From assembly GCA_964573235.1 (NCBI GenBank), contig CAZNIV010000003.1, forward strand, positions 1,482-65,481: a stretch of DNA of 64,000 nt. Direction: 5' to 3'. Shown one piece after another: positions 6,695 through 57,019 of this stretch (position 1 is its first letter; each line of letters opens with the position of its first letter). The notes under the pieces were generated by a model. The model saw only the letters and a program-made list of their open reading frames with translations, had not been told where the DNA came from and did not search any database. A program made the translations under genes and the position numbers. The stretch is from an uncultured Gammaproteobacteria bacterium. Its GTDB lineage: Bacteria > Patescibacteriota > Patescibacteriia > 2-01-FULL-39-33.

Positions 6695-7402
6695 ATGAGT
6701 CAATTATTCATTGTGGCTACGCCAATTGGCAATTTAGCCGATATCACTTTTCGCGCCGTAGAAACACTTAAAAGTGTCGATATTATTGCCTGCGAGGATA
6801 CTCGTAATTCTAGGGTTTTGTTGGATCATTATCAAATTAAAAAACCGCTTATTTCTTATCATCAGCACAGTGGTGAAACTAAGGTTGATGAGATTATTGC
6901 CTTATTAAAGGTGGGTAAAAATTTAGCAGTAATTACTGATGCCGGTACTCCCGGTATTTCCGATCCTGGTAATAAATTAGTGGCGGAAGTAATTAATCAG
7001 CTTGGCGATGATTGTCAGATTATTGCTATTCCTGGCGCTTCGGCAGTTGTAACCGCTTTGGCGGTTTGTGGTTTACCTACGGATAAATTTTTATTTCTGG
7101 GTTTTATGCCACATAAAAAAGGTAAAGAAACCATGATGCGACTGATGGCAGAAGGTAAGATTACCTCGGTTTTTTATGAATCGACACATCGGATTTTAAA
7201 AACTTTAAATAAAATGGTGGAAATTATTGGTGAGAGTAGAAAAATTGTAGTTTGTCGTGAATTAACAAAAAAATTTGAAACAATTTATCGTGGTAGTCTT
7301 AAAGAGGTGGCAGAAAAATTAAATAATAATATTGTCAAAGGAGAGTTTGTAGTGATCGTCTCCGGCAATTATGAAGATAAAAATAAAGAAATCTATGAGT
7401 AA
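6695..7402 (+). CDS. rsmI: 16S rRNA (cytidine1402-2'-O)-methyltransferase
   Basis: Tetrapyrrole-methylase fold. N-terminus LFIVATPIGNLADIT, CEDTR, and a size typical of RsmI. Confidence 0.9.
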   Translation: MSQLFIVATPIGNLADITFRAVETLKSVDIIACEDTRNSRVLLDHYQIKKPLISYHQHSGETKVDEIIALLKVGKNLAVITDAGTPGISDPGNKLVAEVINQLGDDCQIIAIPGASAVVTALAVCGLPTDKFLFLGFMPHKKGKETMMRLMAEGKITSVFYESTHRILKTLNKMVEIIGESRKIVVCRELTKKFETIYRGSLKEVAEKLNNNIVKGEFVVIVSGNYEDKNKEIYE

Positions 7403-10239: not shown

Positions 10240-12310
10240 TTGGTTTAAGTCGAATTATTGTATCTGGTTAGCTATTTTCGGTGTTAGCTTATTTTTAGTT
10301 AATGATTTTTATTGGCATTGGCCAGTGGTTGGCTTTATTTTTTTGGGAACCTATCTTGGCGCAGTTGGGTTTATGACCTATCGTTTTCTGATTCGTTTTT
10401 TTCAATCCAGTGGCTTAATGTTGGGGTGGTTAGCAGTGTTGTTAAATATATTCTTTTTGGGGTTTGTTAATAATATTTTTTTAGCATGGTTTAAATTAAC
10501 AGATTGGACAATTTTAGTTTCATTTATTTTAGTGTTGTCTTTTAATTTTAGTTTAAAATATTTAAAATTTCCGGTAGTTACCGAGGAAAAGAAAATAAAT
10601 GAGAAAATAAATCTTTGGTTAGTGGTGTTGATGGGAGTGATTACCGCCATCGGTTTTTGGTTGATATTTAGAGGGGTAACGGGAGAATATTTAATATCTC
10701 CTTGGCAGGTTTTGGGTTTTTGGTTTGTAGTGGTGGTGTCGGTACTTGGCTTGGTGGCATTTTATTTGCCGTTTTCCAAAGAAAGTGCAAAGACGGTAAT
10801 GGTAGTGATTTTATTCTTTTCTTTCTTGGTACACGGTTATTTATTGGTTTATAATAACGGCTTTGGCGGAGATCGTTGGCGTCATTTGGGTTCAGAATAT
10901 CGTGTTATGCAGGAGATAGAATATCAACCGACGCTTTTGGCGAAAGATGTTTGGTACGCTAAGGTTTTAGGTGTTGAGGTTCCACGCGCCTTGGTTGATG
11001 GTCCAAAGATATCATATGGCTTTGGTTGGTCTTTGGCCGTTATTAGTGCTAAGGCGGGTCAAATAGATTTGTTTTTTGTAGATAAATTTTTAGGTTGGAT
11101 TATCTTCTCTTTGGCAATCCCGATTTTGCTTTATTGGGTTTTAAAGCAATTAGGTTTGGATGATAGGTTGGCGCTATTGGGTGGCGCTATGACCACTATT
11201 TTTTATGGTTGGCAATATTATGGGGCGCAGTCATTGCCAGCGGGTTATGGTTTAATTAGTTTATTGATGCTTTGGTTGTTATGGTTAGTAGTGGCTAAAA
11301 GAGAAAAGAAGTGGTTTTTTATTCCACTTATTTTTTCTGGCTTAATGTATTTTGGTTATTCCTTAGCTTTTATTTTAGCGGTTATTACGGATGTTATATT
11401 TTTGGTGTATTTATTTTCACCTAAATTTTGGTGGCTCAAGGTAATGCCTTTGTGTTTGGTTGTTTTTATTATGGAAGCTTATTCTGGCTATGGTGTTTGG
11501 CTTAATCAGTGGTCGTTAAAATCCCTTTTTGGTGCGGTAGTGGATAGGTTAAACATCTTTTTTTATGGTCAGGGTCAGTGGTTGTTGGGTGTTAATTTTT
11601 GGTCGCCATGGATCTCTCACTTAGTGGCGTTGTTAGCTTTATTTTTATTAGTGCTTGCTATTTGGCTGATTTTAAAAAAGAAAGATGGATTATCTAAATT
11701 GCCTTTGGTATTTTTAATTATTTTAACAGCTAATTATTTATTGGCGTGGCTATTTTTGGGTGGGTTGCATATTTTATCCCGTCGGTTAGATATTTTTCTG
11801 GTGATACCGTTATTAATATTGCTTAGTATTGGTTTATCCGGGATAATTAAAATTAAAAGGGTTAAATATTTTATCCCCGTTATTTTGACCTTTATTTTTA
11901 TCAATGGTTATATTACTGGCCCATTATTGGAGGCTAATATTACTAATGAGGATGTTAAGGTTATGTCTTATGTTTGGCAGGAGATTCAGGTTGATCCTCA
12001 GAAATATTGTGTCTTGGCGGATACTTGGCCACTTTTAGCCCTAGAAGCATTTTCGGCTCAACAGGTAGTGGCCGGTAATTATGAGAGTGATTTTAATCAT
12101 CAACAAGATCAGCGAGTGCGTGATTATCAATTAATTATTACAGGTATTTCTGATATTAATTTGAGTATAATAAAAAACAGTTGCATCCGAAATCAATTGA
12201 TTTTAATTCTGCCAAAAGATAATGTTAATGCTAGTCAATTCGATTTATTAAAAAAGCGGCTAGGTGAGCCGCAAATTTTTCAAAATAGTTTGGTTTACCC
12301 ACCTTTTTGA
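10214..12310 (+). CDS. Large polytopic membrane protein of unknown function (GT-C-like architecture possible)
   Basis: 698 aa: more than 12 hydrophobic segments followed by a ~110-aa soluble C-terminus. No family recognised. Confidence 0.7.
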   Translation: MLKNYLPFNWFKSNYCIWLAIFGVSLFLVNDFYWHWPVVGFIFLGTYLGAVGFMTYRFLIRFFQSSGLMLGWLAVLLNIFFLGFVNNIFLAWFKLTDWTILVSFILVLSFNFSLKYLKFPVVTEEKKINEKINLWLVVLMGVITAIGFWLIFRGVTGEYLISPWQVLGFWFVVVVSVLGLVAFYLPFSKESAKTVMVVILFFSFLVHGYLLVYNNGFGGDRWRHLGSEYRVMQEIEYQPTLLAKDVWYAKVLGVEVPRALVDGPKISYGFGWSLAVISAKAGQIDLFFVDKFLGWIIFSLAIPILLYWVLKQLGLDDRLALLGGAMTTIFYGWQYYGAQSLPAGYGLISLLMLWLLWLVVAKREKKWFFIPLIFSGLMYFGYSLAFILAVITDVIFLVYLFSPKFWWLKVMPLCLVVFIMEAYSGYGVWLNQWSLKSLFGAVVDRLNIFFYGQGQWLLGVNFWSPWISHLVALLALFLLVLAIWLILKKKDGLSKLPLVFLIILTANYLLAWLFLGGLHILSRRLDIFLVIPLLILLSIGLSGIIKIKRVKYFIPVILTFIFINGYITGPLLEANITNEDVKVMSYVWQEIQVDPQKYCVLADTWPLLALEAFSAQQVVAGNYESDFNHQQDQRVRDYQLIITGISDINLSIIKNSCIRNQLILILPKDNVNASQFDLLKKRLGEPQIFQNSLVYPPF

Positions 12311-13663
12311 TTATCGAATATTAAGATAAATTAATTTATTCTGTTTGTTTATACTTCCGGTAAAGTATAAATTTTGGCCGTTAGTATCAGTGATTAGGTT
12401 ATTAATTTCTGAGGTGTTATCGATTGCTAGATTGACAACGTTGCGCAATTCGCGGTTATCGATTTCAATAATTTTTATATTATCGTCAGTGGCTATAATA
12501 ATGTGTCTTCCTAATGGGTGCCAGGCGGTTGTTTTTATTTGTTTTCCAAGGCGAGTGATAATTTCGGGATTATTTTTATTGATATCGTAAAGCCAAACCT
12601 CAAAATCATTGTTAAATAGGATCACATCTTTATTGAGCCAAGAAGCCCCCGTGATGTTTATGGCGATAGGAGAATCGTTGCCACTAAGATCAATAATCGC
12701 GCCGTTAGCCTTTTCTAGATTAGCAATAACTAGACGGTCACTATTTAGGGAAGTTAAAAACTTACCATCATTAAAATCTAGTTGAGATAGTTGGCGAATG
12801 GTTTTATTTTTATTAATTGCTATTAACTGTTTTTCGTTAATGGCGTAAATGGTGTCATTATTAATCAAATAGTCGCTAATTTTTTTATCCTTTAAAATAA
12901 TGGAATTTTGTTTTTTAATTAAATCAATTTGCCATAAGTTTGAACCAGCTAGCGCAAAAATAATAGTTCCGGCGTTGTTGATGCGTGCTATAGTTGTTTG
13001 AGGTGGAATTAGTGATGTTATTTTTGTTAAATTAATATTGCTAAAAAAATAACGGCCATTAGTTAAAAGGTAATAGTCTATTTGATTTTTATTGTTTTTT
13101 GTTTTTAATAAAGTTTTATAACCACCAATATTCCAATCGTAACTTTCAATGATCGTTCCAATTCCAAGACTGGCTATTGCTTGGTAGCTGGCCGAGGCGG
13201 TATCTAGGAAGTTTAGCGATCCCTTATTATCTATAAAATAAGCATCTTGTTTGTTGGGAGAAATGGCTATTTGACCGCTAGAGGCAATATTTGTCAGGGG
13301 TGAAGATGTAGTTTGCTTCCAGAGTAAAATATTTTCGGCAAAAGAAGTATAGTTTTCGTAAATAGGTAATTTTTTCTCCCAAGAATAGTAGCCGGGTTTA
13401 CTTAATTTAATATTATAATTGCCAGGCATTAAATTTTCTAAACGAGTAGGTGTGTTTTTTTCAGTATATTTATCGTTGAGGGTAATATCAGCCTTTTTGG
13501 GGTTGGAAGAAATAACTAAAATACCGGTTTGTTGGATGTGTTGATTTTTAAAATTAAAACGATACCCTTGAGTGTAAAAAATAATTAAGGGCGTGACAAT
13601 TAAAAATAGAATAATAAATAGGGAATAGGTGATGCGACGATAAATGAGTTCGCTTTTATTCAT
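12311..13663 (-). CDS. PEGA-domain protein with beta-propeller-like C-terminal region
   Basis: N-terminal TM. PEGA-like segment ISSNPKKADITLNDK...PGNYNIKLSKPGYYSWEKKL. Start overlaps the murA stop by 8 nt. Confidence 0.7.
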   Translation of the reverse strand: MNKSELIYRRITYSLFIILFLIVTPLIIFYTQGYRFNFKNQHIQQTGILVISSNPKKADITLNDKYTEKNTPTRLENLMPGNYNIKLSKPGYYSWEKKLPIYENYTSFAENILLWKQTTSSPLTNIASSGQIAISPNKQDAYFIDNKGSLNFLDTASASYQAIASLGIGTIIESYDWNIGGYKTLLKTKNNKNQIDYYLLTNGRYFFSNINLTKITSLIPPQTTIARINNAGTIIFALAGSNLWQIDLIKKQNSIILKDKKISDYLINNDTIYAINEKQLIAINKNKTIRQLSQLDFNDGKFLTSLNSDRLVIANLEKANGAIIDLSGNDSPIAINITGASWLNKDVILFNNDFEVWLYDINKNNPEIITRLGKQIKTTAWHPLGRHIIIATDDNIKIIEIDNRELRNVVNLAIDNTSEINNLITDTNGQNLYFTGSINKQNKLIYLNIR

Positions 13664-27842: not shown

Positions 27843-28925
27843 TTAGAAGTTATTAGCCAAGGAGTACATTGGCATCATAACGGCTAAGGCAACTATGGCA
27901 ATGGCGCCACCCATACACAACATTAAAACAGGCTCAATAATAGTCGGTAAATTGTTCATAGTATTTGAAACTTCTTCTTCGTAAAAGCCAGCGATAGTAT
28001 CTAAAATTTCATCTAATGATCCCGTTTCTTCGCCGACGGCCACCATTTGTTGCATGATAGGTGGAAAGATATCGGGGTGACTGGTAAAAACGGATTCTAA
28101 TTTTTGACCCTTTTTTATAAATTCTACCGATTCAATTAAGGCATTGCGATAAAAAGAATTGGTTACTACCTTAGAAGTTATTTCTAAGGCATTAATGATG
28201 TTAATGTCGGTTTTAATTAAAGAGCTAAGACTGCGAGAAATTCTGGCCAGATTAATTTTCGTAATAATCGGGCTGAGAATTGGTGTTTTAATCATAAGAT
28301 AGTCGAAAGTTCTTTTGCCAGAGGCGGTTTTCAATAAGCGAGTAATTAATACCGCTGAAAAAATGACTATGCCAAGGGTTAGTAAGCCATTGTTTTGAAG
28401 AAAACTACTAGTGCCAATTAATATTTTAGTGGCTAACGGCAATTCGATATTCATGTCTGTAAATACCTTGGTTAAGTTTGGCAAAATAAATAACATAATA
28501 AATATGCCAATACCCAACATGGCACATAAAATAATGATTGGATAAATCATGGCGCTTTTTATTTTGCCCTTGAGTTCGTAATCTTTCTTGGTTTGTAGGT
28601 ATAGAGTTTTTAATGTTTCTTCTAGTTTACCAGAAATTTCACCACTTTTAATCATATTAATGAACATTTCGTCAAAATCATCTTTGTAGTCTTCTAGGCT
28701 TTCGCCAAAATTTTTTCCTTGATTAATTTTGTCACTAACGGCAGTTAAAATCATTTTTAACTTTTTGTTGCTAGTTTGAGTAGTTAAAGTTTTTAAAGAT
28801 TCCGCCAAGGGGATGCCGGCCTTAATCATGATAGATAGGTTTTGCAATAAAAAAACTTTAGCCGTGACCGGCACTTTTTGAATTTTCTGAATGTAGTCAT
28901 CAATTTGATTAAAAGAAAAGCTCAT
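27843..28925 (-). CDS. pilC: Type IV pilus platform protein PilC (GspF family)
   Basis: Two T2SSF repeats and three TM regions. Immediately downstream of pilB. Confidence 0.9.
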   Translation of the reverse strand: MSFSFNQIDDYIQKIQKVPVTAKVFLLQNLSIMIKAGIPLAESLKTLTTQTSNKKLKMILTAVSDKINQGKNFGESLEDYKDDFDEMFINMIKSGEISGKLEETLKTLYLQTKKDYELKGKIKSAMIYPIIILCAMLGIGIFIMLFILPNLTKVFTDMNIELPLATKILIGTSSFLQNNGLLTLGIVIFSAVLITRLLKTASGKRTFDYLMIKTPILSPIITKINLARISRSLSSLIKTDINIINALEITSKVVTNSFYRNALIESVEFIKKGQKLESVFTSHPDIFPPIMQQMVAVGEETGSLDEILDTIAGFYEEEVSNTMNNLPTIIEPVLMLCMGGAIAIVALAVMMPMYSLANNF

Positions 28926-28927
28926 AA

Positions 28928-30649
28928 TTATTCTCTAGTTACTCTTAATACTTCTTCGATAGTGGTATCGCCAAATTTGGCTTTAATAAAACCGTCTTGC
29001 ATAATGGTGGTCATGCCATTTTTAATAGCAGTACTTTCTAATTGTTCGCGAGAAGCTTTTTGGAGGATTAATTCAGACATTTCAGTGTTAACTTCTAATA
29101 ATTCATATAAACCAACGCGGCCTTTGTAGCCGGTATTATTACAAATTTGGCAACCCTTGCCTCGGAAAAATAATATGGAACGAATGTTTTGATCTTTACT
29201 TAAATAACCACGAGACATTAGGGATTTTTCTACCTTATCCAGATCAAATTGTTTTTCTAATTCGGTAATAGTTTTCTTGTCTAAGTTATAGCTCTCGATG
29301 CAATTTTTACAAATTTTTCGGGCTAAACGTTGAGCAATAATTAAGTTAATAGTGGAGGCTAATAAAAAGGTTGGGATATTCATATCAAGCAAGCGAGGAA
29401 TAGCAGTAACCGCATCATTAGTATGCAATGTAGTGAGTACTAAGTGACCTGTCATGGCGGCATTAATGCTGATTTCGGCAGTTTCGGTATCGCGAGTTTC
29501 ACCAACTAGAATAATGTTAGGGTCTTGGCGTAAAAAGGCGCGCAAAGCCGAAGCAAAAGTATAGCCGATCTTTGGTTGAATTTGGCTTTGGTTGACTCCT
29601 GGCATGCGATATTCGATTGGGTCTTCAACAGTGGAAATATTAATTTCAGGCTTATTTAAAACACCGATAATTGTGTATAGGGTAGTGGTTTTACCAGAAC
29701 CGGTAGGGCCAGTTACTAAGATCATGCCGTGAGGTTTATAAATATTGCGCTCTAAAATCTCTAGGGCCTGAGGTAACAAGCCTAGTTGCTTGAGAGTCAG
29801 GGTTTGATTAGTATCAGGTAATAAACGCAAGACAATTTTTTCGCCGTCAAAAGTGGGGATAATAGAAACACGGAAAGATACTTGGTATTCGTTAGTTTTT
29901 ATCTTAAAGCGCCCATCTTGAGGTAAGCGATGTTCATCGATTTTTAAATTAGACAAGATTTTGATACGGGCTACTACGCCAGCATGAATAGCCTTGGGCA
30001 GTGTCATTACCTTTTTTAAGATGCCATCAATACGGTAACGCACGATTACCTCTTTTTCTAATGGTTCAATATGAATATCTGAGGCTTTTTCTAAATATGC
30101 GTATTCTAATAAAGTATCTACTACGCGAACAACGGGTAGATCTTGAGCTAGGGTTTTTAATTTGTCACTGCTTTCATTATCTTTATTTTCACTTTCTAAT
30201 TCTTTAAATTCAGCGTTTAACCCTTTATGATAGTGCTTTAAACCTTCTTGAATGCCTTCGGGGGTGGTAATATGTAGTTTGATTTTTAGTTCAGTTTTTT
30301 TGGCTAAAAAATCGCATAACTCCATGTTGGAAATATCTAGGCCAGCGATGAGTAATTCCGTATCGGTTTTATCAAAGGCAATCGTTTTATGAGCTTGAGC
30401 GGTAATTTCTGGAACTAATGATAAAACATCTGGGCGGATAGTTTTAACTTTTAAATCAATAAATGGCAGCTTATAAAATTTAGCTACCATTTCGTATAAG
30501 GCAACGGGGGTAACAAATTTATCGCGGATTAATAAATCCTCCACATTCTCACCATTCTTTTTGCTGGATTCAACATATGAAATAAGTTGCTTTTCATTAA
30601 GCAAGTTATTTTCTTTGACGATGATTTCTAAATCTTTTCGATTAATCAT
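28928..30649 (-). CDS. pilB: Type IV pilus assembly ATPase PilB (GspE family)
   Basis: Walker A GPTGSGKTTT, LRQDPNIILVGETRD, His box TGHLVLTTLHTN, tetracysteine CKNC...CQICNNTGYKGR. Confidence 0.95.
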   Translation of the reverse strand: MINRKDLEIIVKENNLLNEKQLISYVESSKKNGENVEDLLIRDKFVTPVALYEMVAKFYKLPFIDLKVKTIRPDVLSLVPEITAQAHKTIAFDKTDTELLIAGLDISNMELCDFLAKKTELKIKLHITTPEGIQEGLKHYHKGLNAEFKELESENKDNESSDKLKTLAQDLPVVRVVDTLLEYAYLEKASDIHIEPLEKEVIVRYRIDGILKKVMTLPKAIHAGVVARIKILSNLKIDEHRLPQDGRFKIKTNEYQVSFRVSIIPTFDGEKIVLRLLPDTNQTLTLKQLGLLPQALEILERNIYKPHGMILVTGPTGSGKTTTLYTIIGVLNKPEINISTVEDPIEYRMPGVNQSQIQPKIGYTFASALRAFLRQDPNIILVGETRDTETAEISINAAMTGHLVLTTLHTNDAVTAIPRLLDMNIPTFLLASTINLIIAQRLARKICKNCIESYNLDKKTITELEKQFDLDKVEKSLMSRGYLSKDQNIRSILFFRGKGCQICNNTGYKGRVGLYELLEVNTEMSELILQKASREQLESTAIKNGMTTIMQDGFIKAKFGDTTIEEVLRVTRE

Positions 30650-30711
30650 GTTCTAAGTTATTATTGTTATCAATATTATAACATATTTTGGGGTTAAAGA
30701 GAAAACTAAAA

Positions 30712-30733
30712 AACCCTGAAGTTATTCAGGGTT
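30712..30733 (-). terminator. Terminator downstream of the GT4 gene (minus strand)
   Basis: AACCCTGAA / TTCAGGGTT with loop GTTA. The T-run is on the minus-strand side (plus-strand CTAAAAA). Confidence 0.6.
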
Positions 30734-30750
30734 TTAGAGCGGGGAGTTTT

Positions 30751-31890
30751 TTAGGCGATTTTTAAAGATTTTTTAGCGATTAAGTTTTGGTATTGGATAA
30801 TAGTTTTGTGAGCGATATCATCCCAATTATAATCTTTATCTACCATGATTTTGGCTTTTCTGGCCAAGTCAGTAATAAGGTCATGGTCAGTATCGGCTAA
30901 GACTAATTGTTTGGTTAAATCAGCTCCACTTTTATTTTTAAAAGATAAGCTGTAGTCGCCAGTAGCTTCTAGGTTTTCTGGAATATCACTAACAATGACT
31001 GGGATTTCATAAGCCATAGCTTCTAGTAGGGCGATAGATAAGCCCTCAGCTTCTGAAGGTTGCACGAATAAGTAAGCGTTGGTGAATAAGGTATTTAATT
31101 CATTACCGGATTGAGAGCCAGTAAAAATAATATTTGGATTATTTACAGCTAAACGGTGTAAGTAAGAAACATATTCATCAGTATTGGATCCGCCACCAAC
31201 AATGACTAATTTTTTATCGGTTTTAATTTTTTGGTAAGCATCAATTAAAGTATGAACACCTTTATGTTGTACTAGGCGAGAAACTAAAACAAAGTATTTT
31301 TGCTTCTCTAAGCCATATTTATTTAAAATAGCAATTTGATGGCTGGAATTTTTTGCTGGGCTAATATTAACACCATTAGGAATGTAAGTAGCTTCTCGGT
31401 TAAATTGGGTTTTGACATATTTTTGTAATCCCTTAGAAATGACAATGGTTTCATGAGGAAAGTGGCAAGCGGCCCATTCTCCCATGGCTAACATTAATTT
31501 AGCAAAGTGACCCCATTTTTGATGTTCTTTATCTTGGCAGTGAAAGGTAACAACGACTTTGGTTTTTGGCGCTAACAATCTAGGAATCCAAGATAATAAA
31601 GCGGGGCCAACGCCATGGTAATGAATGACATTATAATTTTGAAAGATGGCATGCAAAGAAGAGAATAGGGTATGAGAAATAGCGTCTAAATTTTTGGTGT
31701 TAATGGATGGGCAATAAATTAAATTAACATTTTTATATTCGCTGTGACGATTGCCGGTATAATGCTCGCGAGCATACACAGTAACCGATTCATGGGCTTG
31801 GGCTAAACGCACAGCTAACTCCTCGACATGTTTTTCAATGCCGCCTTGTTTAGTAGGGATGCCTTTTTGTCCAATGAATGCGATTTTCAT
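30751..31890 (-). CDS. Family 4 glycosyltransferase
   Basis: GT-B fold with E-x7-E region EAEGLSIALLEAMAYEIPVIVSDIPEN. Confidence 0.85.
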   Translation of the reverse strand: MKIAFIGQKGIPTKQGGIEKHVEELAVRLAQAHESVTVYAREHYTGNRHSEYKNVNLIYCPSINTKNLDAISHTLFSSLHAIFQNYNVIHYHGVGPALLSWIPRLLAPKTKVVVTFHCQDKEHQKWGHFAKLMLAMGEWAACHFPHETIVISKGLQKYVKTQFNREATYIPNGVNISPAKNSSHQIAILNKYGLEKQKYFVLVSRLVQHKGVHTLIDAYQKIKTDKKLVIVGGGSNTDEYVSYLHRLAVNNPNIIFTGSQSGNELNTLFTNAYLFVQPSEAEGLSIALLEAMAYEIPVIVSDIPENLEATGDYSLSFKNKSGADLTKQLVLADTDHDLITDLARKAKIMVDKDYNWDDIAHKTIIQYQNLIAKKSLKIA

Positions 31891-31920: not shown

Positions 31921-31949
31921 ATTATAGCACAATGTGATAATTCTGTCAA
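31921..31949 (-). promoter_or_regulatory. Consensus sigma70 promoter for the GT4 gene
   Basis: Minus strand reads TTGACA (31949-31944), 17-nt spacer, TGC-TATAAT (31926-31921). Confidence 0.55.
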
Positions 31950-31986
31950 GTATTTAAGAAAAGTGAGAAATTTTGGAATTAAAGAA

Positions 31987-32038
31987 GCCCCGCGACCCTA
32001 GTGATTGCATTGGTTGCGTTCACTTTGGGTGGCGGGGC
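31987..32038 (-). terminator. Long GC-rich imperfect hairpin at the 3' end of the high-GC cassette (probable terminator)
   Basis: GCCCCGCGACCC (31987-31998) pairs with GGGTGGCGGGGC (32027-32038) with one mismatch. Inner GTGA/TCAC pairing. T-rich run follows on the minus strand. Confidence 0.5.
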
Positions 32039-32054
32039 TGGAGGCGGTTGGGGT

Positions 32055-32552
32055 TCAGTTGATCGGAATATTTTCTTCCGCGTCACCGTCCTTGGCGGCG
32101 ACAAGTTTGGTGTCCTTGCCATTGCGGGTGACGGCGGTTTTTTTGGTGTTTAGGAACACCTTGCTGCCGTCCTTGAGGACGACGTAGATGTTACACACCG
32201 TTCCAGCTGGCAACTTGCTCAGGTCGTAACCAACGGCAGTCTTGCCGTCGTAGCTGAATCCTGCTCCCGTGATGGGGTCGGCGCTGACCAGATTACCGGC
32301 CTCGTCGAGTTTCGCGTTGCTTTCGCTGTGGCAACCGTAGGGCGCCGATTTCGACATGATGAGCACGCCGATCTTGGTGATCTGGTCGATGGCGACGGGC
32401 TTGATGAGCCCGACGACATTCCCATCCTTGACAGCGACGGCGACGTGGATACCATTGGCATCCTTGGTCACATCGGCATCGGCGGCCTGGGTGTTGATGG
32501 CGGACAGTGCGGTCAGGGCGACCGCGGCGAGGATTGCGATTGTCTTTTTCAT
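32055..32552 (-). CDS. Secreted protein of unrecognised family, encoded in a high-GC cassette (165 aa)
   Basis: AGGGAG lies 8 nt upstream of ATG 32552. Signal peptide MKKTIAILAAVALTALSAINTQA|AD. Strong G/C third-position bias, two Cys. The ORF-track start at 32618 is an upstream extension. Confidence 0.7.
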   Translation of the reverse strand: MKKTIAILAAVALTALSAINTQAADADVTKDANGIHVAVAVKDGNVVGLIKPVAIDQITKIGVLIMSKSAPYGCHSESNAKLDEAGNLVSADPITGAGFSYDGKTAVGYDLSKLPAGTVCNIYVVLKDGSKVFLNTKKTAVTRNGKDTKLVAAKDGDAEENIPIN

Positions 32553-32728
32553 GGTAACTACTCCCTGTTGTTTTGAATACACACCACCGACAGTCGTTGC
32601 CGGCAGTAGGAACGACACCAGAACCAGGCACTGAAACTTTTTTCTCCTTTGTTTTTTTGTTTTTGTTGTATTGAAAGGTTCGAAGCTAATCGATTTGTCT
32701 AAAGCACTTTATCAGTACTCGACTAAGT

Positions 32729-32757
32729 ATTGTATCAGATAAGTGTGTATTTGTCAA
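32729..32757 (-). promoter_or_regulatory. Near-consensus sigma70 promoter reading into the high-GC cassette
   Basis: Minus strand reads TTGACA (32757-32752), 17-nt spacer, TACAAT (32734-32729). Lies in AT-rich, host-like DNA. Confidence 0.5.
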
Positions 32758-32793
32758 TAGTTAAATGATTAAAATCCCTTAGATTAGCTAAAT

Positions 32794-34482
32794 TTATCTA
32801 ATTTTACCATTAATTAGCCCATTTTTATCTAAAGCGGCATCAGTATTAATTGGTTTGGTGCTATAAGTTAAGGTTTCACCAGTAAGGGTGTCTTGGGCGC
32901 TAGCGGTAGTGGTGTTGATGATTTTTCCAACCATTCCGCCTTGGTCGGCAGTAGGAGTAAACTCTACTTCAAAGGCGCAAGCAATGCTAGGATAATTAGC
33001 ACTAGGGGCATTCACGGTATCAACATTCCAAGTGATTAAGTTATTTTTGGTATCGTAATGAACTCCACCATTAGCGGTAGTAGTGTATTGCCCGGTCCAG
33101 CGGACATTTTGACCAAGAGAAGTTTTAACTTGTAAATCTCTTAGATCATTTATATTGCTAGTAACTTGCATGGCTACCCAATAGCGAGTGGCCTCGCCGA
33201 TTTTCGGCGGTAATGGGCCAAAGCCAATTTGGTCACCTTCGGCGGTGAAGTATTTTAGGGTCACTGGCAAGGTCATTAAAGTGTTGATTTTTTGATTGAT
33301 AACATCAGCTGATTGAAAGCCAATATTGCCATCTGGCATAGTGTAATTTAGTTGGGTGGCTATGTTAAGAAAATTATTTTTTTGTTCACCATCCTTAAGA
33401 TTAATAGAAAAGGGAATGACTATAGACGCTTCTGGATTTAGACTGGCTAAGGCTAAAGTATTAGTGCGATCAAATTTAATGTTAGTGTCGCCTAATAGAT
33501 TATCCTCAGTAATATTAAGGGTGATATTTTTGACGGTAAAGTTTTCATGATTAATAATGGTGGCCAAATAAGAATTAACGCCAAAATTGGCATTTGTACT
33601 ATTGGCTTTAATGACTAAATCAATCTTAGATTTTTTAAAATTAATGGTAATGTTATTTTCAGCTAATTGATTTGAGCTATTGTCGGTAGTAATTTGGATC
33701 TTAAAAGAGTTGAGGGTTTTATTAATATTGTTTTTTACAGTTTTGGCAACAATCGTGCCAGTTAAACTTTGCTTAGGGTTTAGGGTAATGTTTTTTATGG
33801 GCAAAGTAGAAGAAGTGATGATTAAATTATTAGATAATAAATTATGACTCAGGGATAAGTTATTAATCGTGTTGTCACTTTTATTTTCAAGCGTAACATA
33901 GAAGGTAACTGGTTGACCGGCAAAAGCCCAGTCGGTAGCCTTTATGGTTAGAGACAATGGAGAGTCGCTGATATTTATTAGCTGGTTAATTTTTTTGGTA
34001 CGCTTGGCAGTATTGCCCTCGGGGATGAAAGTTAGTATTGAGTAAATTTGTTGTTCAGTTTTTGGCATCGCCCAAAACTTGCCGGAAAGGTTAATGGCGC
34101 CCTTGGCATTAATATCTAAGTCACCTAAGTTAAAGGTGATAGTTTTTTGGTCAAATTTTTGACTTGGAGATCCGCCAATTAATTCAAAGCTGTTAGGTAG
34201 ATTAAAAGTTAGTGTGGCTTGATTAAGTTGTTTACCTGATTTATTTTCGTAAGAAAAAATAAGATTAGTAACATCACCAGCAACAGTAGATTGATTTTGA
34301 TTTTCAGCGATTAAATCAATTTTATTTTCAATACGAAAGGCCACTTTATCTAAATGGCTATATAAACTAAGTGCCAATAAAATACCGACTAAAAAAAGCA
34401 AGAAAAAATTAAATACCAATGGGACCTTTTTTGTTTCAAATCGGCTGGCCGCAAAATCTTTTAGGAGTTTTTTTAGTTTCAT
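32794..34482 (-). CDS. Membrane-anchored, repeat-rich surface protein (DUF11/CARDB-like beta-sandwich modules, unverified)
   Basis: N-terminal TM (VPLVFNFFLLFLVGILLALSLY). N/T/S-rich beta-strand periodicity with recurring L.F.L.N...G....L.G modules. Confidence 0.6.
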   Translation of the reverse strand: MKLKKLLKDFAASRFETKKVPLVFNFFLLFLVGILLALSLYSHLDKVAFRIENKIDLIAENQNQSTVAGDVTNLIFSYENKSGKQLNQATLTFNLPNSFELIGGSPSQKFDQKTITFNLGDLDINAKGAINLSGKFWAMPKTEQQIYSILTFIPEGNTAKRTKKINQLINISDSPLSLTIKATDWAFAGQPVTFYVTLENKSDNTINNLSLSHNLLSNNLIITSSTLPIKNITLNPKQSLTGTIVAKTVKNNINKTLNSFKIQITTDNSSNQLAENNITINFKKSKIDLVIKANSTNANFGVNSYLATIINHENFTVKNITLNITEDNLLGDTNIKFDRTNTLALASLNPEASIVIPFSINLKDGEQKNNFLNIATQLNYTMPDGNIGFQSADVINQKINTLMTLPVTLKYFTAEGDQIGFGPLPPKIGEATRYWVAMQVTSNINDLRDLQVKTSLGQNVRWTGQYTTTANGGVHYDTKNNLITWNVDTVNAPSANYPSIACAFEVEFTPTADQGGMVGKIINTTTASAQDTLTGETLTYSTKPINTDAALDKNGLINGKIR

Positions 34483-56058: not shown

Positions 56059-56583
56059 ATGCCAAAGACTAAGCAGCAAAAACAAGATGTTGTCGCTGAG
56101 TTGAACGACAATGTTAAAAAGATGAAGTCTGCGGTGTTCATCAACTTCGCCAATACATCTGTTAAAGATGTAACCGAGTTGAGAAACAATTGCCGCAAGG
56201 AAAATGTTGAATACGTGGTGGCTAAAAAGACATTGCTTAAGAAGGCTTTGATCGATAATGGTTATACTATCGCTCAAGACCGCGAATTATCAGGTGAAAT
56301 CGCCTCAGTGTTCGCTCTTAAGGATGAAGTTTCTGCCGCTAGAGTAATTAACGATTTTACCAAGGAACACAAGACAATTAAGATCGTAGCCGGTATCTTG
56401 GAAGGAAAATTTGTAGAAGTTGATCAGGTGATCGCTTTGGCAAAATTACCAAGCAAGCAAGAACTTATCGCCAAGGTGGTTGGTTCTATCGCCGCTCCAC
56501 TTTCTGGTATGGTCAATGTGTTGCAGGGCAATTTACGCAATTTCGTTTACGCTTTGAGTGCCATTAGGGATAAAAAAGCTTAA
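56059..56583 (+). CDS. rplJ: 50S ribosomal protein L10
   Basis: Typical L10 N-terminus and length, followed by rplL. Confidence 0.95.
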   Translation: MPKTKQQKQDVVAELNDNVKKMKSAVFINFANTSVKDVTELRNNCRKENVEYVVAKKTLLKKALIDNGYTIAQDRELSGEIASVFALKDEVSAARVINDFTKEHKTIKIVAGILEGKFVEVDQVIALAKLPSKQELIAKVVGSIAAPLSGMVNVLQGNLRNFVYALSAIRDKKA

Positions 56584-56623
56584 CAACAACTAAATTAAAT
56601 AAAAAATTATTAAATCAAAAATT

Positions 56624-57019
56624 ATGTCAGAACAAAATGTAACCGTTCCAGAAAAGTTTAAAGCTTTAGTGGAACAAATCGAAAATCTTAGCGTTTTGGA
56701 TTTAGCCGAATTGGTTAAAGTATTGGAATCTAAGTTTGGCGTTTCTGCTGCTGCTCCTGTAGCTGCTGCTGCCGCTGCTCCAGCTGCTGCCGCTGCTGAA
56801 GAAAAGACTTCTTTCAATGTAGAGTTGACTTCTTCTGGCGAAAGCAAAATTAACGTTATCAAAGCCGTTAGAACCGTTGTTGCTGAATTAGGCTTAAAGG
56901 AAGCTAAGGATTTAGTTGATGGCGCTCCAAAGATGGTGAAAGAAAACGTTACTAAGGAAGAAGCTGAAAAGATTAAAAAAGCTTTAGAAGAAGCTGGTGC
57001 AAAGGTTACTTTGAAATAA
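56624..57019 (+). CDS. rplL: 50S ribosomal protein L7/L12
   Basis: Ala-rich hinge [20 protein letters not shown] and C-terminal domain [14 protein letters not shown]...EAGAKV. Confidence 0.95.

Follow-up and report, generated by a model that had tools for sequence, protein, structure and literature searches.

A GC-rich gene for an exported protein beside the pilus operon of a Patescibacteria genome: probably a resident member of a variable surface-protein family

Introduction

Atypical GC content and atypical codon usage are routinely read as signs of recent transfer. The 64,000-nt stretch of contig CAZNIV010000003.1 analysed here (hereafter the window) raises the question of whether this reading holds for every such gene: on its minus strand, beside a type IV pilus operon, a GC-rich block (31987-32631) carrying the gene of a 165-aa secreted protein stands out from an AT-rich genome. 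A preliminary description, made from the sequence alone, saw in the block a lone cassette of unknown family, imported very recently from a high-GC donor (speculatively, the host of an episymbiont), with an assembly chimera as the alternative. From the comparison of this locus with those of related organisms, we consider it probable, with appreciable room for doubt, that the block is the minimal resident member of a clade-wide, fast-evolving family of surface proteins, which occupies a fixed, variable slot and is equipped with native expression signals.

Genomic islands and intra-phylum exchange are reported to be common in Patescibacteria (PMC12455944), and a hypervariable repeat gene has been reported in a Gracilibacteria genome (PMC6851277). 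Neither of these papers describes the island studied here, and our literature searches returned no prior description of it.

Results

A compositional outlier with authentic junctions

In 500-nt windows, the 64 kb have a mean G+C content of 0.362 (standard deviation 0.036), with a peak of 0.58 at 32051, and the block, which itself has a G+C content of 0.58, is the sole region above 0.46. Its edges are sharp in 40-nt windows (at ~31985 and ~32630), the 200-nt windows within 32000-32599 reaching 0.545-0.60 against 0.28-0.45 in both flanks, and its tetranucleotide distance from the window average corresponds to z=8.6. The minus-strand frame 32552->32055 shows clear codon periodicity (G+C at the three codon positions, GC1/GC2/GC3, of 0.56/0.41/0.76), its GC3 lying far from that of 55 host genes (0.314±0.036, range 0.24-0.45; z=12.3). 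C-ending codons predominate in it (third-position C and G, C3 and G3, of 0.54 and 0.22), with GTC, GCC, CTC/CTG, GAC, AGC and CCC as preferred choices. The preliminary description had therefore seen correctly the abrupt flip in composition, the G/C third positions unlike those of the host, the coding frame (on which codon periodicity, ribosome-binding-site spacing and signal peptide agree) and the pile-up of open reading frames (ORFs), of which eight with at least 40 aa overlap in several frames within the block.

GC-rich islands in AT-rich genomes are often structured non-coding RNAs, and a block such as this one, intergenic-looking and with a strong hairpin at one end, could be taken for one of them, the ORF being incidental. 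We regard this as scarcely credible, given the codon periodicity, a Shine-Dalgarno (SD) sequence at the correct spacing, a signal peptide, the protein-level homology to the family module described below and the lack of any Rfam match in the block at E<=1, in a scan that covered both the block and the whole window.

The chimera proposed as an alternative, in which a fragment of a GC-rich organism would have been misjoined into an AT-rich contig during assembly or binning, would fit the abrupt change in composition, as well as the fact that three short contigs terminate near the downstream border. However, the exact protein or the exact flanking glycosyltransferase (GT) gene is found on five short contigs from five samples (four in ENA and one in JGI), all of them 99.9-100% identical to the window, and between them these contigs reproduce both junctions in independent assemblies from two repositories. 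Three contigs cross the upstream junction (L001, window 33798..31947; L002, 33437..31995; L003, 32874..31915), L001 and L003 also running 40-72 nt past the downstream one, while two more cross the downstream junction (L166, 32190..30455, through the GT gene into pilB; L167, 32354..30706, through the GT gene), joining 200-370 nt of the block to 1.2-1.5 kb of host DNA. At positions 1-15 and 1868-1888 of L001 and 1-23 of L003, both MEGAHIT contigs from ENA, remnants of the Nextera adapter (CTGTCTCTTATACACATCT or its complement) are found, which accounts for these two contigs stopping near the block. With the same architecture recurring in ~20 other lineages, the chimera is effectively refuted. 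The gene is present in all five assemblies, and the window strain yielded no contig in which the site is empty.

A GC-rich slot shared by some 20 lineages

In ~20 related lineages of Buchananbacteria-like Patescibacteria (loci L004, L006-L010, L012-L014, L087-L097 and L168-L174), the slot between an X-like gene and the GT-pilB-pilC genes holds one to three GC-rich genes. Throughout the clade in which this GT is directly followed by pilB-pilC, almost all loci whose upstream sequence is long enough have a GC island immediately 5' of the GT gene, with a maximum 400-nt G+C content of 0.54-0.64 over host backgrounds of 0.28-0.55. The contents of the slot differ between related genomes, while its position between core genes is fixed. 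The order found in the window (GHL15, X, the GC-rich gene, GT, PilB, PilC) is the same in L168, L170, L171, L091 and L013, and in the three long contigs among these (L168, L170 and L171) it extends to MurD-MraY-Wzz-Wzy-GT-GHL15-X, island, GT-PilB-PilC-pseudopilins-PilMNO. An X-like gene precedes the island in L013, L091, L168, L170, L171 and L172. In the more distant relative L019, X and GT are adjacent, separated by a 106-bp spacer, and in L020 and L105 they are likewise adjacent with a short spacer. Small ORFs found in the slots of L015 and L008 proved unrelated. One outcome that the preliminary description had envisaged, that relatives would carry the same gene here with a composition like that of the host, is thus borne out only in its first part: a related family does occupy the position, and its composition is not host-like.

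In the window, the upstream border of the slot is the gene of a 562-aa protein (X; 32794..34482, minus strand) of host-like composition, a fast-evolving, putative surface protein for which an exact-protein look-up returned no record. Downstream, also on the minus strand, Pfam identifies a GT4 glycosyltransferase (30751-31890), the PilB ATPase (28928-30649) and PilC (27843-28925), the synteny of this flank as a whole (27843..31890) being conserved in the clade; the location in an envelope locus beside the pilus operon had been rightly recognised beforehand. The flanking GT marks the host as a Patescibacteria bacterium, its nearest named metagenome-assembled genomes being Candidatus Buchananbacteria, at ~60% identity. 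Several records (L006, L008, L010, L011, L013, L014 and others) are titled "uncultured Gammaproteobacteria bacterium" or "Bdellovibrionales bacterium", which look like placeholder or wrong labels, since gene content and synteny match Patescibacteria. The contigs of the relatives often end in or beside the island, and these breaks hint at alternative versions among strains, a clue that is suggestive only.

The 165-aa protein matches the module of the island family

The island genes of the relatives encode proteins of 300-800 aa, most of which open with a lipoprotein leader (...[LI][TSC]GCP...) and continue with Ig I-set, divergent InlB B-repeat, DUF5011 Ig-like or dockerin domains, shuffled as a mosaic with (GE)n linkers. 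The domain labels found were Ig I-set, Flg_new_2, Bact_surface_Ig-like and Dockerin, accompanied by a signal peptide or a lipobox. Many of these proteins additionally carry a module of ~140 aa, which in related species is fused to Ig-like, InlB-B, DUF5011 and dockerin domains and to lipoprotein or C-terminal membrane anchors. With their domains and their lipoprotein or Sec leaders, the relatives' proteins resemble Ig-like/InlB-B/DUF5011 adhesins (PF07679, PF13927, PF18998, PF16403), whereas the window protein shares only the additional module and none of these Pfam domains. The (Gly-Glu)n linkers between Ig-like domains (GEGEGE...) reach up to ~35 repeats (L007/L087; L014, 1576-3267; L088, 1211-2866).

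Direct searches with the 165-aa protein were uninformative. Neither Pfam nor NCBIfam gave a match, word-indexed and exhaustive phmmer searches, covering 5.8 billion clusters and 1.84 billion representatives, returned only the protein itself at high identity, and large protein collections held no homologue above 30% identity; the weak hits obtained (P0002-P0005) were mutually inconsistent repeat proteins with scores summed over repeats and were discarded. We then scored the protein with four profiles of the module, each built without the window protein and controlled with 2000 shuffles. A hidden Markov model (HMM) of three sequences gave 8.0 bits, a score reached by one shuffle in 2000. The other profiles gave 16.6-23.5 bits, with 0/2000 shuffles each, among them an eight-sequence HMM (alignment A1 minus the window row; 23.5 bits) and an HMM rebuilt from the relatives' hits (20.0 bits, with a shuffle maximum of 9.1). 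In agreement with this, hhalign aligned the window protein with A2 over 89 columns (E=3.7e-5, probability 71%). The window protein is collinear with the ~140-aa module, its residues 55-146 (32115..32390, minus strand) containing the motifs ITKIGVLIM..APYGC and VCNIYVV..KVFLNT..NG, to be compared with the module signature dG..V.V / DV..IG / C.PYVV / [YF]F[IL]NT / LNG.

The earlier view of a lone oddity of unknown family is therefore not supported, since the protein matches the module of a clade-specific family of surface proteins. Of the homology and structure checks suggested for it, the profile and hhalign comparisons yielded this distant match, and the direct searches and AlphaFold2 were uninformative: the models are all-beta and of low confidence (pLDDT of 46 from the single sequence and 48.5 from a three-row alignment). 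Pfam scans of the carrier proteins gave no match for the module itself, the module profile had no match in the PDB, and a search of a large collection with a profile of the module alignment returned only fragments of island proteins already found. DUF4397 (PF14344) was considered and rejected, the Pfam scan being negative and the module profile matching DUF4397 repeats with a probability of 0.1%; the window protein itself has only a 25-residue local match to it (probability 41%). No other complete protein that we saw consists, like that of the window, of a signal peptide and the module alone, the complete carriers among the relatives being multidomain. The N-terminus of the window protein's signal peptide resembles the signal peptidase I (SPase I)-type leaders encoded in L012 (777-1697) and L009 (2124-3386).

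A self-contained transcription unit of the family type

The window gene is bounded by its own expression signals, all on the minus strand. The promoter (32729..32757) lies in AT-rich, host-like DNA and consists of TTGACA, a 17-nt spacer and TACAAT with an extended -10 TG (an 11/12 match). Directly after the -10 box, a hairpin is computed to fold (32697..32723), which may stabilise the mRNA. The 5' leader of ~170 nt (32553..32722), delimited from the sequence and by comparison of leaders, is AT-rich in its first ~90 nt, where it holds a shared GAACCTT..AAAA-like motif, and GC-rich in its last ~80 nt (32553-32631); as a whole, it folds no better than its shuffles (z=-0.58). The SD sequence AGGGAG (32561-32566) stands exactly 8 nt before the ATG of the coding sequence (32055..32552, stop codon included; GC3 0.76, C3 0.54), whose first 23 residues, MKKTIAILAAVALTALSAINTQA/AD (32484..32552), read by eye, have the form of a Sec signal peptide cleaved by SPase I and contain no lipobox. 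An intrinsic terminator follows (31975..32039), made of a 54-nt GC-rich hairpin (31986-32039; -32.4 kcal/mol, z=-5.9, with 0/200 shuffles as stable) and a weak U tract (CUUCUUUAAUU). On its downstream side, the slot is bordered by the promoter of the GT gene (31921..31949), a 12/12 match, again with TG. The ribosome-binding site and its spacing, the Sec leader, the long terminal hairpin and the host-style promoters on either side had all been claimed in the preliminary description, and all of them hold. An in-frame GTG at 32618, 66 nt 5' of the ATG and with AAGGAG ~12 nt before it, would put 22 residues ahead of the signal peptide; if it were used, the GC block would correspond almost exactly to the coding sequence together with its terminator. 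The ATG, preceded by AGGGAG at 8 nt, is still the more convincing start codon.

The same organisation is found in the relatives. Each of the 17 island genes examined has its own TTGACAAA-17-TAnAAT promoter in AT-rich DNA. In every case the -10 box is immediately followed by a hairpin and the leader measures 83-295 nt, and all of the island 3' ends examined have a strong hairpin followed by a T-run. Since these terminators occupy the equivalent position, the hairpin in the window is a terminator as well, and not a recombination site. Equivalent GT promoters are also present in relatives. In multi-gene islands the intergenic spacers drop to 24-38% GC, which shows that GC-richness belongs to each transcribed gene body. 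Compared with what characterises the family, the window gene has the autonomous unit (promoter, 5' hairpin, long leader and hairpin terminator) and a GC3 far above that of the host with C3 > G3; of the family's export signal and accessory domains it has the signal peptide and no accessory Pfam domain.

A small secreted-protein ORF followed by an imperfect hairpin of ~54 nt is also reminiscent of an integron gene cassette. This identity was rejected: the hairpin, which leads into a U tract, is without RYYYAAC/GTTRRRY core sites or attC-like R/L boxes, the gene comes with a promoter of its own, and there is neither an integrase among the neighbours nor a cassette array.

A strong promoter, a 5' hairpin and a strong terminator might suggest that the gene is native and that its composition results from translational selection for host-optimal codons at very high expression. 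The predominance of C-ending codons is in line with this proposal, and ATC and AAG are favoured in host ribosomal protein genes too. As internal reference for highly expressed codon usage we took the window's own L10 and L7/L12 genes (56059-57019), whose GC3 is 0.45, at the top of the host genes, and 0.27, respectively. Their preferences (GTT, GCT, TTG/TTA, GAT, TCT and CCA) differ from those of the block, the GC3 of L7/L12 is as low as just given, and the non-coding part of the leader is GC-rich too, so that we judge this explanation very improbable.

Two further features of the relatives' loci deserve mention. In one subclade, a GC-rich, multi-stem leader of ~230 nt lies 5' of the island gene (L168, 9735-9990; L169; L171, 9735-9990; L170, 9570-9812; L091, 2750-2974). 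Some of its base pairs show compensatory changes, Rfam gave no match for it, and R1, a covariance model of the core, matches those loci only, with no match in the window; it is a candidate for a new cis-regulatory RNA. Just 3' of the island gene, a non-coding stretch of ~260 nt is 92% identical between L172 (3854-4111) and L171 (11378-11636), with a weaker counterpart in L168 (11549-11719). The unannotated gap that precedes GT, 0.5-1 kb long and moderately GC-rich, includes this stretch, in which there is no ORF, no island-protein remnant and no Rfam hit; the gap of L168 and L171 holds no remnant genes, and Rfam gave nothing relevant on L168.

Composition decoupled from the host, and the age of the islands

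Across the clade, host GC3 ranges from 0.13 (L091) to 0.68 (L096), while island GC3 stays at ~0.46-0.83, with C3 always above G3. The GC3 excess of the window gene over its host (+0.45) is among the largest seen. Two pairs of relatives allow the island gene to be dated against its flanks. Between L168 and L171, protein identity is 84-99% in the flanks and 66% in the island, and nonsynonymous divergence (dN) is 0.005-0.09 and 0.285, respectively; the synonymous saturation fraction of the island (0.64) falls within that of the flanks (0.15-0.69), with island GC3 values of 0.80 and 0.81 in hosts of 0.42-0.52. Between L091 and L172, identity is 75-81% in the flanks and 75.5% in the island, the saturation fractions are 0.77-0.84 and 0.72, and island GC3 is 0.66 versus 0.83 in hosts of 0.15 versus 0.43. 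Both pairs indicate that the island gene has the same synonymous age as its flanks and is still GC-rich, the AT bias of the host having lowered island GC in the L091 lineage part-way only. A neutral resident gene would by then have largely equilibrated with its host, and it follows that something maintains the GC.

The locus is also a site of recombination. When L168 (6000-16500) is compared with L171, tracts of 100% identity (e.g. 6901-7301 and 12046-12446) alternate with tracts of 78-90%, a mosaic which indicates frequent homologous recombination between related Patescibacteria populations at the envelope/pilus locus. Between L168 and L170, GT and PilB are 93% identical and the upstream genes 61-74%, a step that places the island at a recombination junction. 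A search with the L091 island protein found full-length relatives only among metagenome proteins, those on the five contigs fetched all lying in the same slot, and its matches in named organisms outside the Candidate Phyla Radiation (CPR) cover the generic DUF5011 domain only.

These results bear on the explanation first offered for the block, a recent horizontal arrival from a GC-rich source, recombined into the slot after DNA uptake and not yet ameliorated. The source might be an unrelated bacterium, possibly the host of the symbiont, or else a GC-rich bacterium belonging to this CPR clade, and L095, L096 and L097, with host GC3 of 0.59-0.68 and island genes that look native there, are possible clade donors. 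The GC3 of the gene (0.76 against 0.31 in the host), a codon usage typical of a genome of ~60% GC, the sharp borders, the extension of the GC-rich part over ~80 nt of leader and the terminator, and the lack of homologues above 30% identity all speak for such an arrival; so do the mosaic recombination and the adjoining type IV pilus operon, such pili having been proposed to mediate DNA uptake in Patescibacteria (PMC12455944). Nevertheless, no donor for the block or its protein was found among ~15 billion proteins or in phage or plasmid collections (tblastn). No meaningful inverted or direct repeats or target-site duplication were detected at the borders and no integrase or transposase among the neighbouring genes, much as the preliminary description had itself remarked; nor is there a tRNA in the 64 kb. 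The gene has the promoter, 5' hairpin and leader motif that are native to the clade as a whole, and it is present in all five assemblies. A GC-rich family in the same slot of ~20 lineages, orthologues as old as their flanks where tested and the lack of a donor together mean that recent acquisition is no longer the economical explanation, and we rate it as unlikely, though clearly less so than translational selection. The original claim, that the gene arrived very recently from a donor or host of high GC, is thus not supported.

A gene that looks far more like a horizontal acquisition than that of the window is found in L019 (7384-9561), where a 725-aa H+-translocating pyrophosphatase (PF03030, E=5e-171) with a GC content of 0.64 and a GC3 of 0.90 lies directly 3' of GT, on a Patescibacteria contig of ~36% GC.

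Discussion

The reading that we favour is that of a self-contained unit of the host, in which a sigma-70 promoter would drive transcription through a 5' hairpin and a ~170-nt leader with SD into the 165-aa ORF, and up to an intrinsic terminator. The unit occupies a conserved variable slot, flanked on one side by the envelope-polysaccharide cluster (Wzz-Wzy-GT-GHL15-X) and on the other by the type IV pilus operon (GT-pilB-pilC). The product is predicted to be Sec-exported, all-beta and of ~15 kDa, formed by the ~140-aa module alone, and may function at the cell surface, or after release, as a host-contact protein (in adhesion or recognition) under diversifying selection. The surface role is suggested by the domains of the relatives' proteins and by the location of the gene, which is probably strongly expressed. 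GC-richness, in the form of C-ending codons, is a trait of the whole island family, and in those relatives that allow a test it is kept up in spite of the AT mutational bias of the host. Most likely, the window copy was inherited within the variable surface locus of its lineage, and not recently captured from an unrelated high-GC organism.

Several observations weigh against this reading. The closest relative of the window lineage, among genome and metagenome contigs alike, has a GT identity of only ~63%; the window protein is only 10-24% identical to the other modules, and the support from profiles is modest (8-23.5 bits, with an hhalign probability of 71%). Additionally, the protein is without the lipobox and the Ig/InlB domains of the family, and the low-confidence models lend no support as to fold or function. 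The argument for maintained GC is drawn from two species pairs and a rough measure of saturation, and a GC3 excess as large as +0.45 is what would be expected of a newer arrival in the slot.

Several candidates can be named for what keeps these genes GC-rich. Selection might act on the transcript or the DNA; gene conversion with a GC bias might operate at a locus prone to recombination; or the genes might be patched repeatedly from a GC-rich pool that has escaped sampling. A bolder version would make the head of the pilus operon a dedicated slot, in which surface genes are held at ~55-64% G+C, with GC3 up to 0.83, independently of the host, even where the latter is as low as 28% G+C with a GC3 of 0.13, by a gene-specific process. 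We put this forward tentatively, as a possibility that we rather doubt.

The known system that comes nearest is the flexible genomic island of the replacement type that encodes surface structures, from which the present locus differs by its high, host-independent GC. The atypical-GC rfb/O-antigen loci of enterobacteria are further examples of surface islands at fixed positions. With replacement-type islands, such as the O-antigen and glycotype islands of marine and freshwater bacteria (cf. PMC10872708), the locus shares the fixed slot, species-specific content, surface products and atypical composition, as well as the frequent contig breaks and the signs of recombination at the border. Replacement islands hold glycosyltransferase clusters, whereas here one to three adhesin-like protein genes are found; the classical ones are AT-richer than their genome, whereas these are GC-richer; here composition is about constant while host GC3 goes from 0.13 to 0.68, the orthologues are apparently retained vertically, and no strain-level variability was seen, the five assemblies being identical. 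A classical horizontal-transfer islet or ORFan would share the atypical GC, GC3 and tetranucleotides, the lack of database homologues and the single gene. The window gene, however, comes without integrase, tRNA, repeats or donor and with a native promoter and leader, and has a related family at the same site with long residence in two related lineages.

If the favoured reading is true, a foreign-looking composition has been kept at one syntenic site across ~20 lineages with host GC3 of 0.13-0.68, composition-based calls of horizontal transfer can be systematically wrong for some loci, and synonymous sites in very small genomes would be subject to a force not yet recognised. If the compositional compartment were also true, it would be a heritable one for host-contact proteins, a counter-example to the equation of atypical composition with recent transfer, and its GC could come from continual uptake of DNA from GC-rich partner organisms. 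To our knowledge, neither the host nor the attachment molecules of the uncultured Buchananbacteria-like organisms are known. CPR biology would gain here a set of candidate host-contact proteins, fast-evolving, exported and autonomously, probably strongly, expressed as far as can be told from sequence, whose genes adjoin the pilus genes implicated in episymbiont attachment and DNA uptake.

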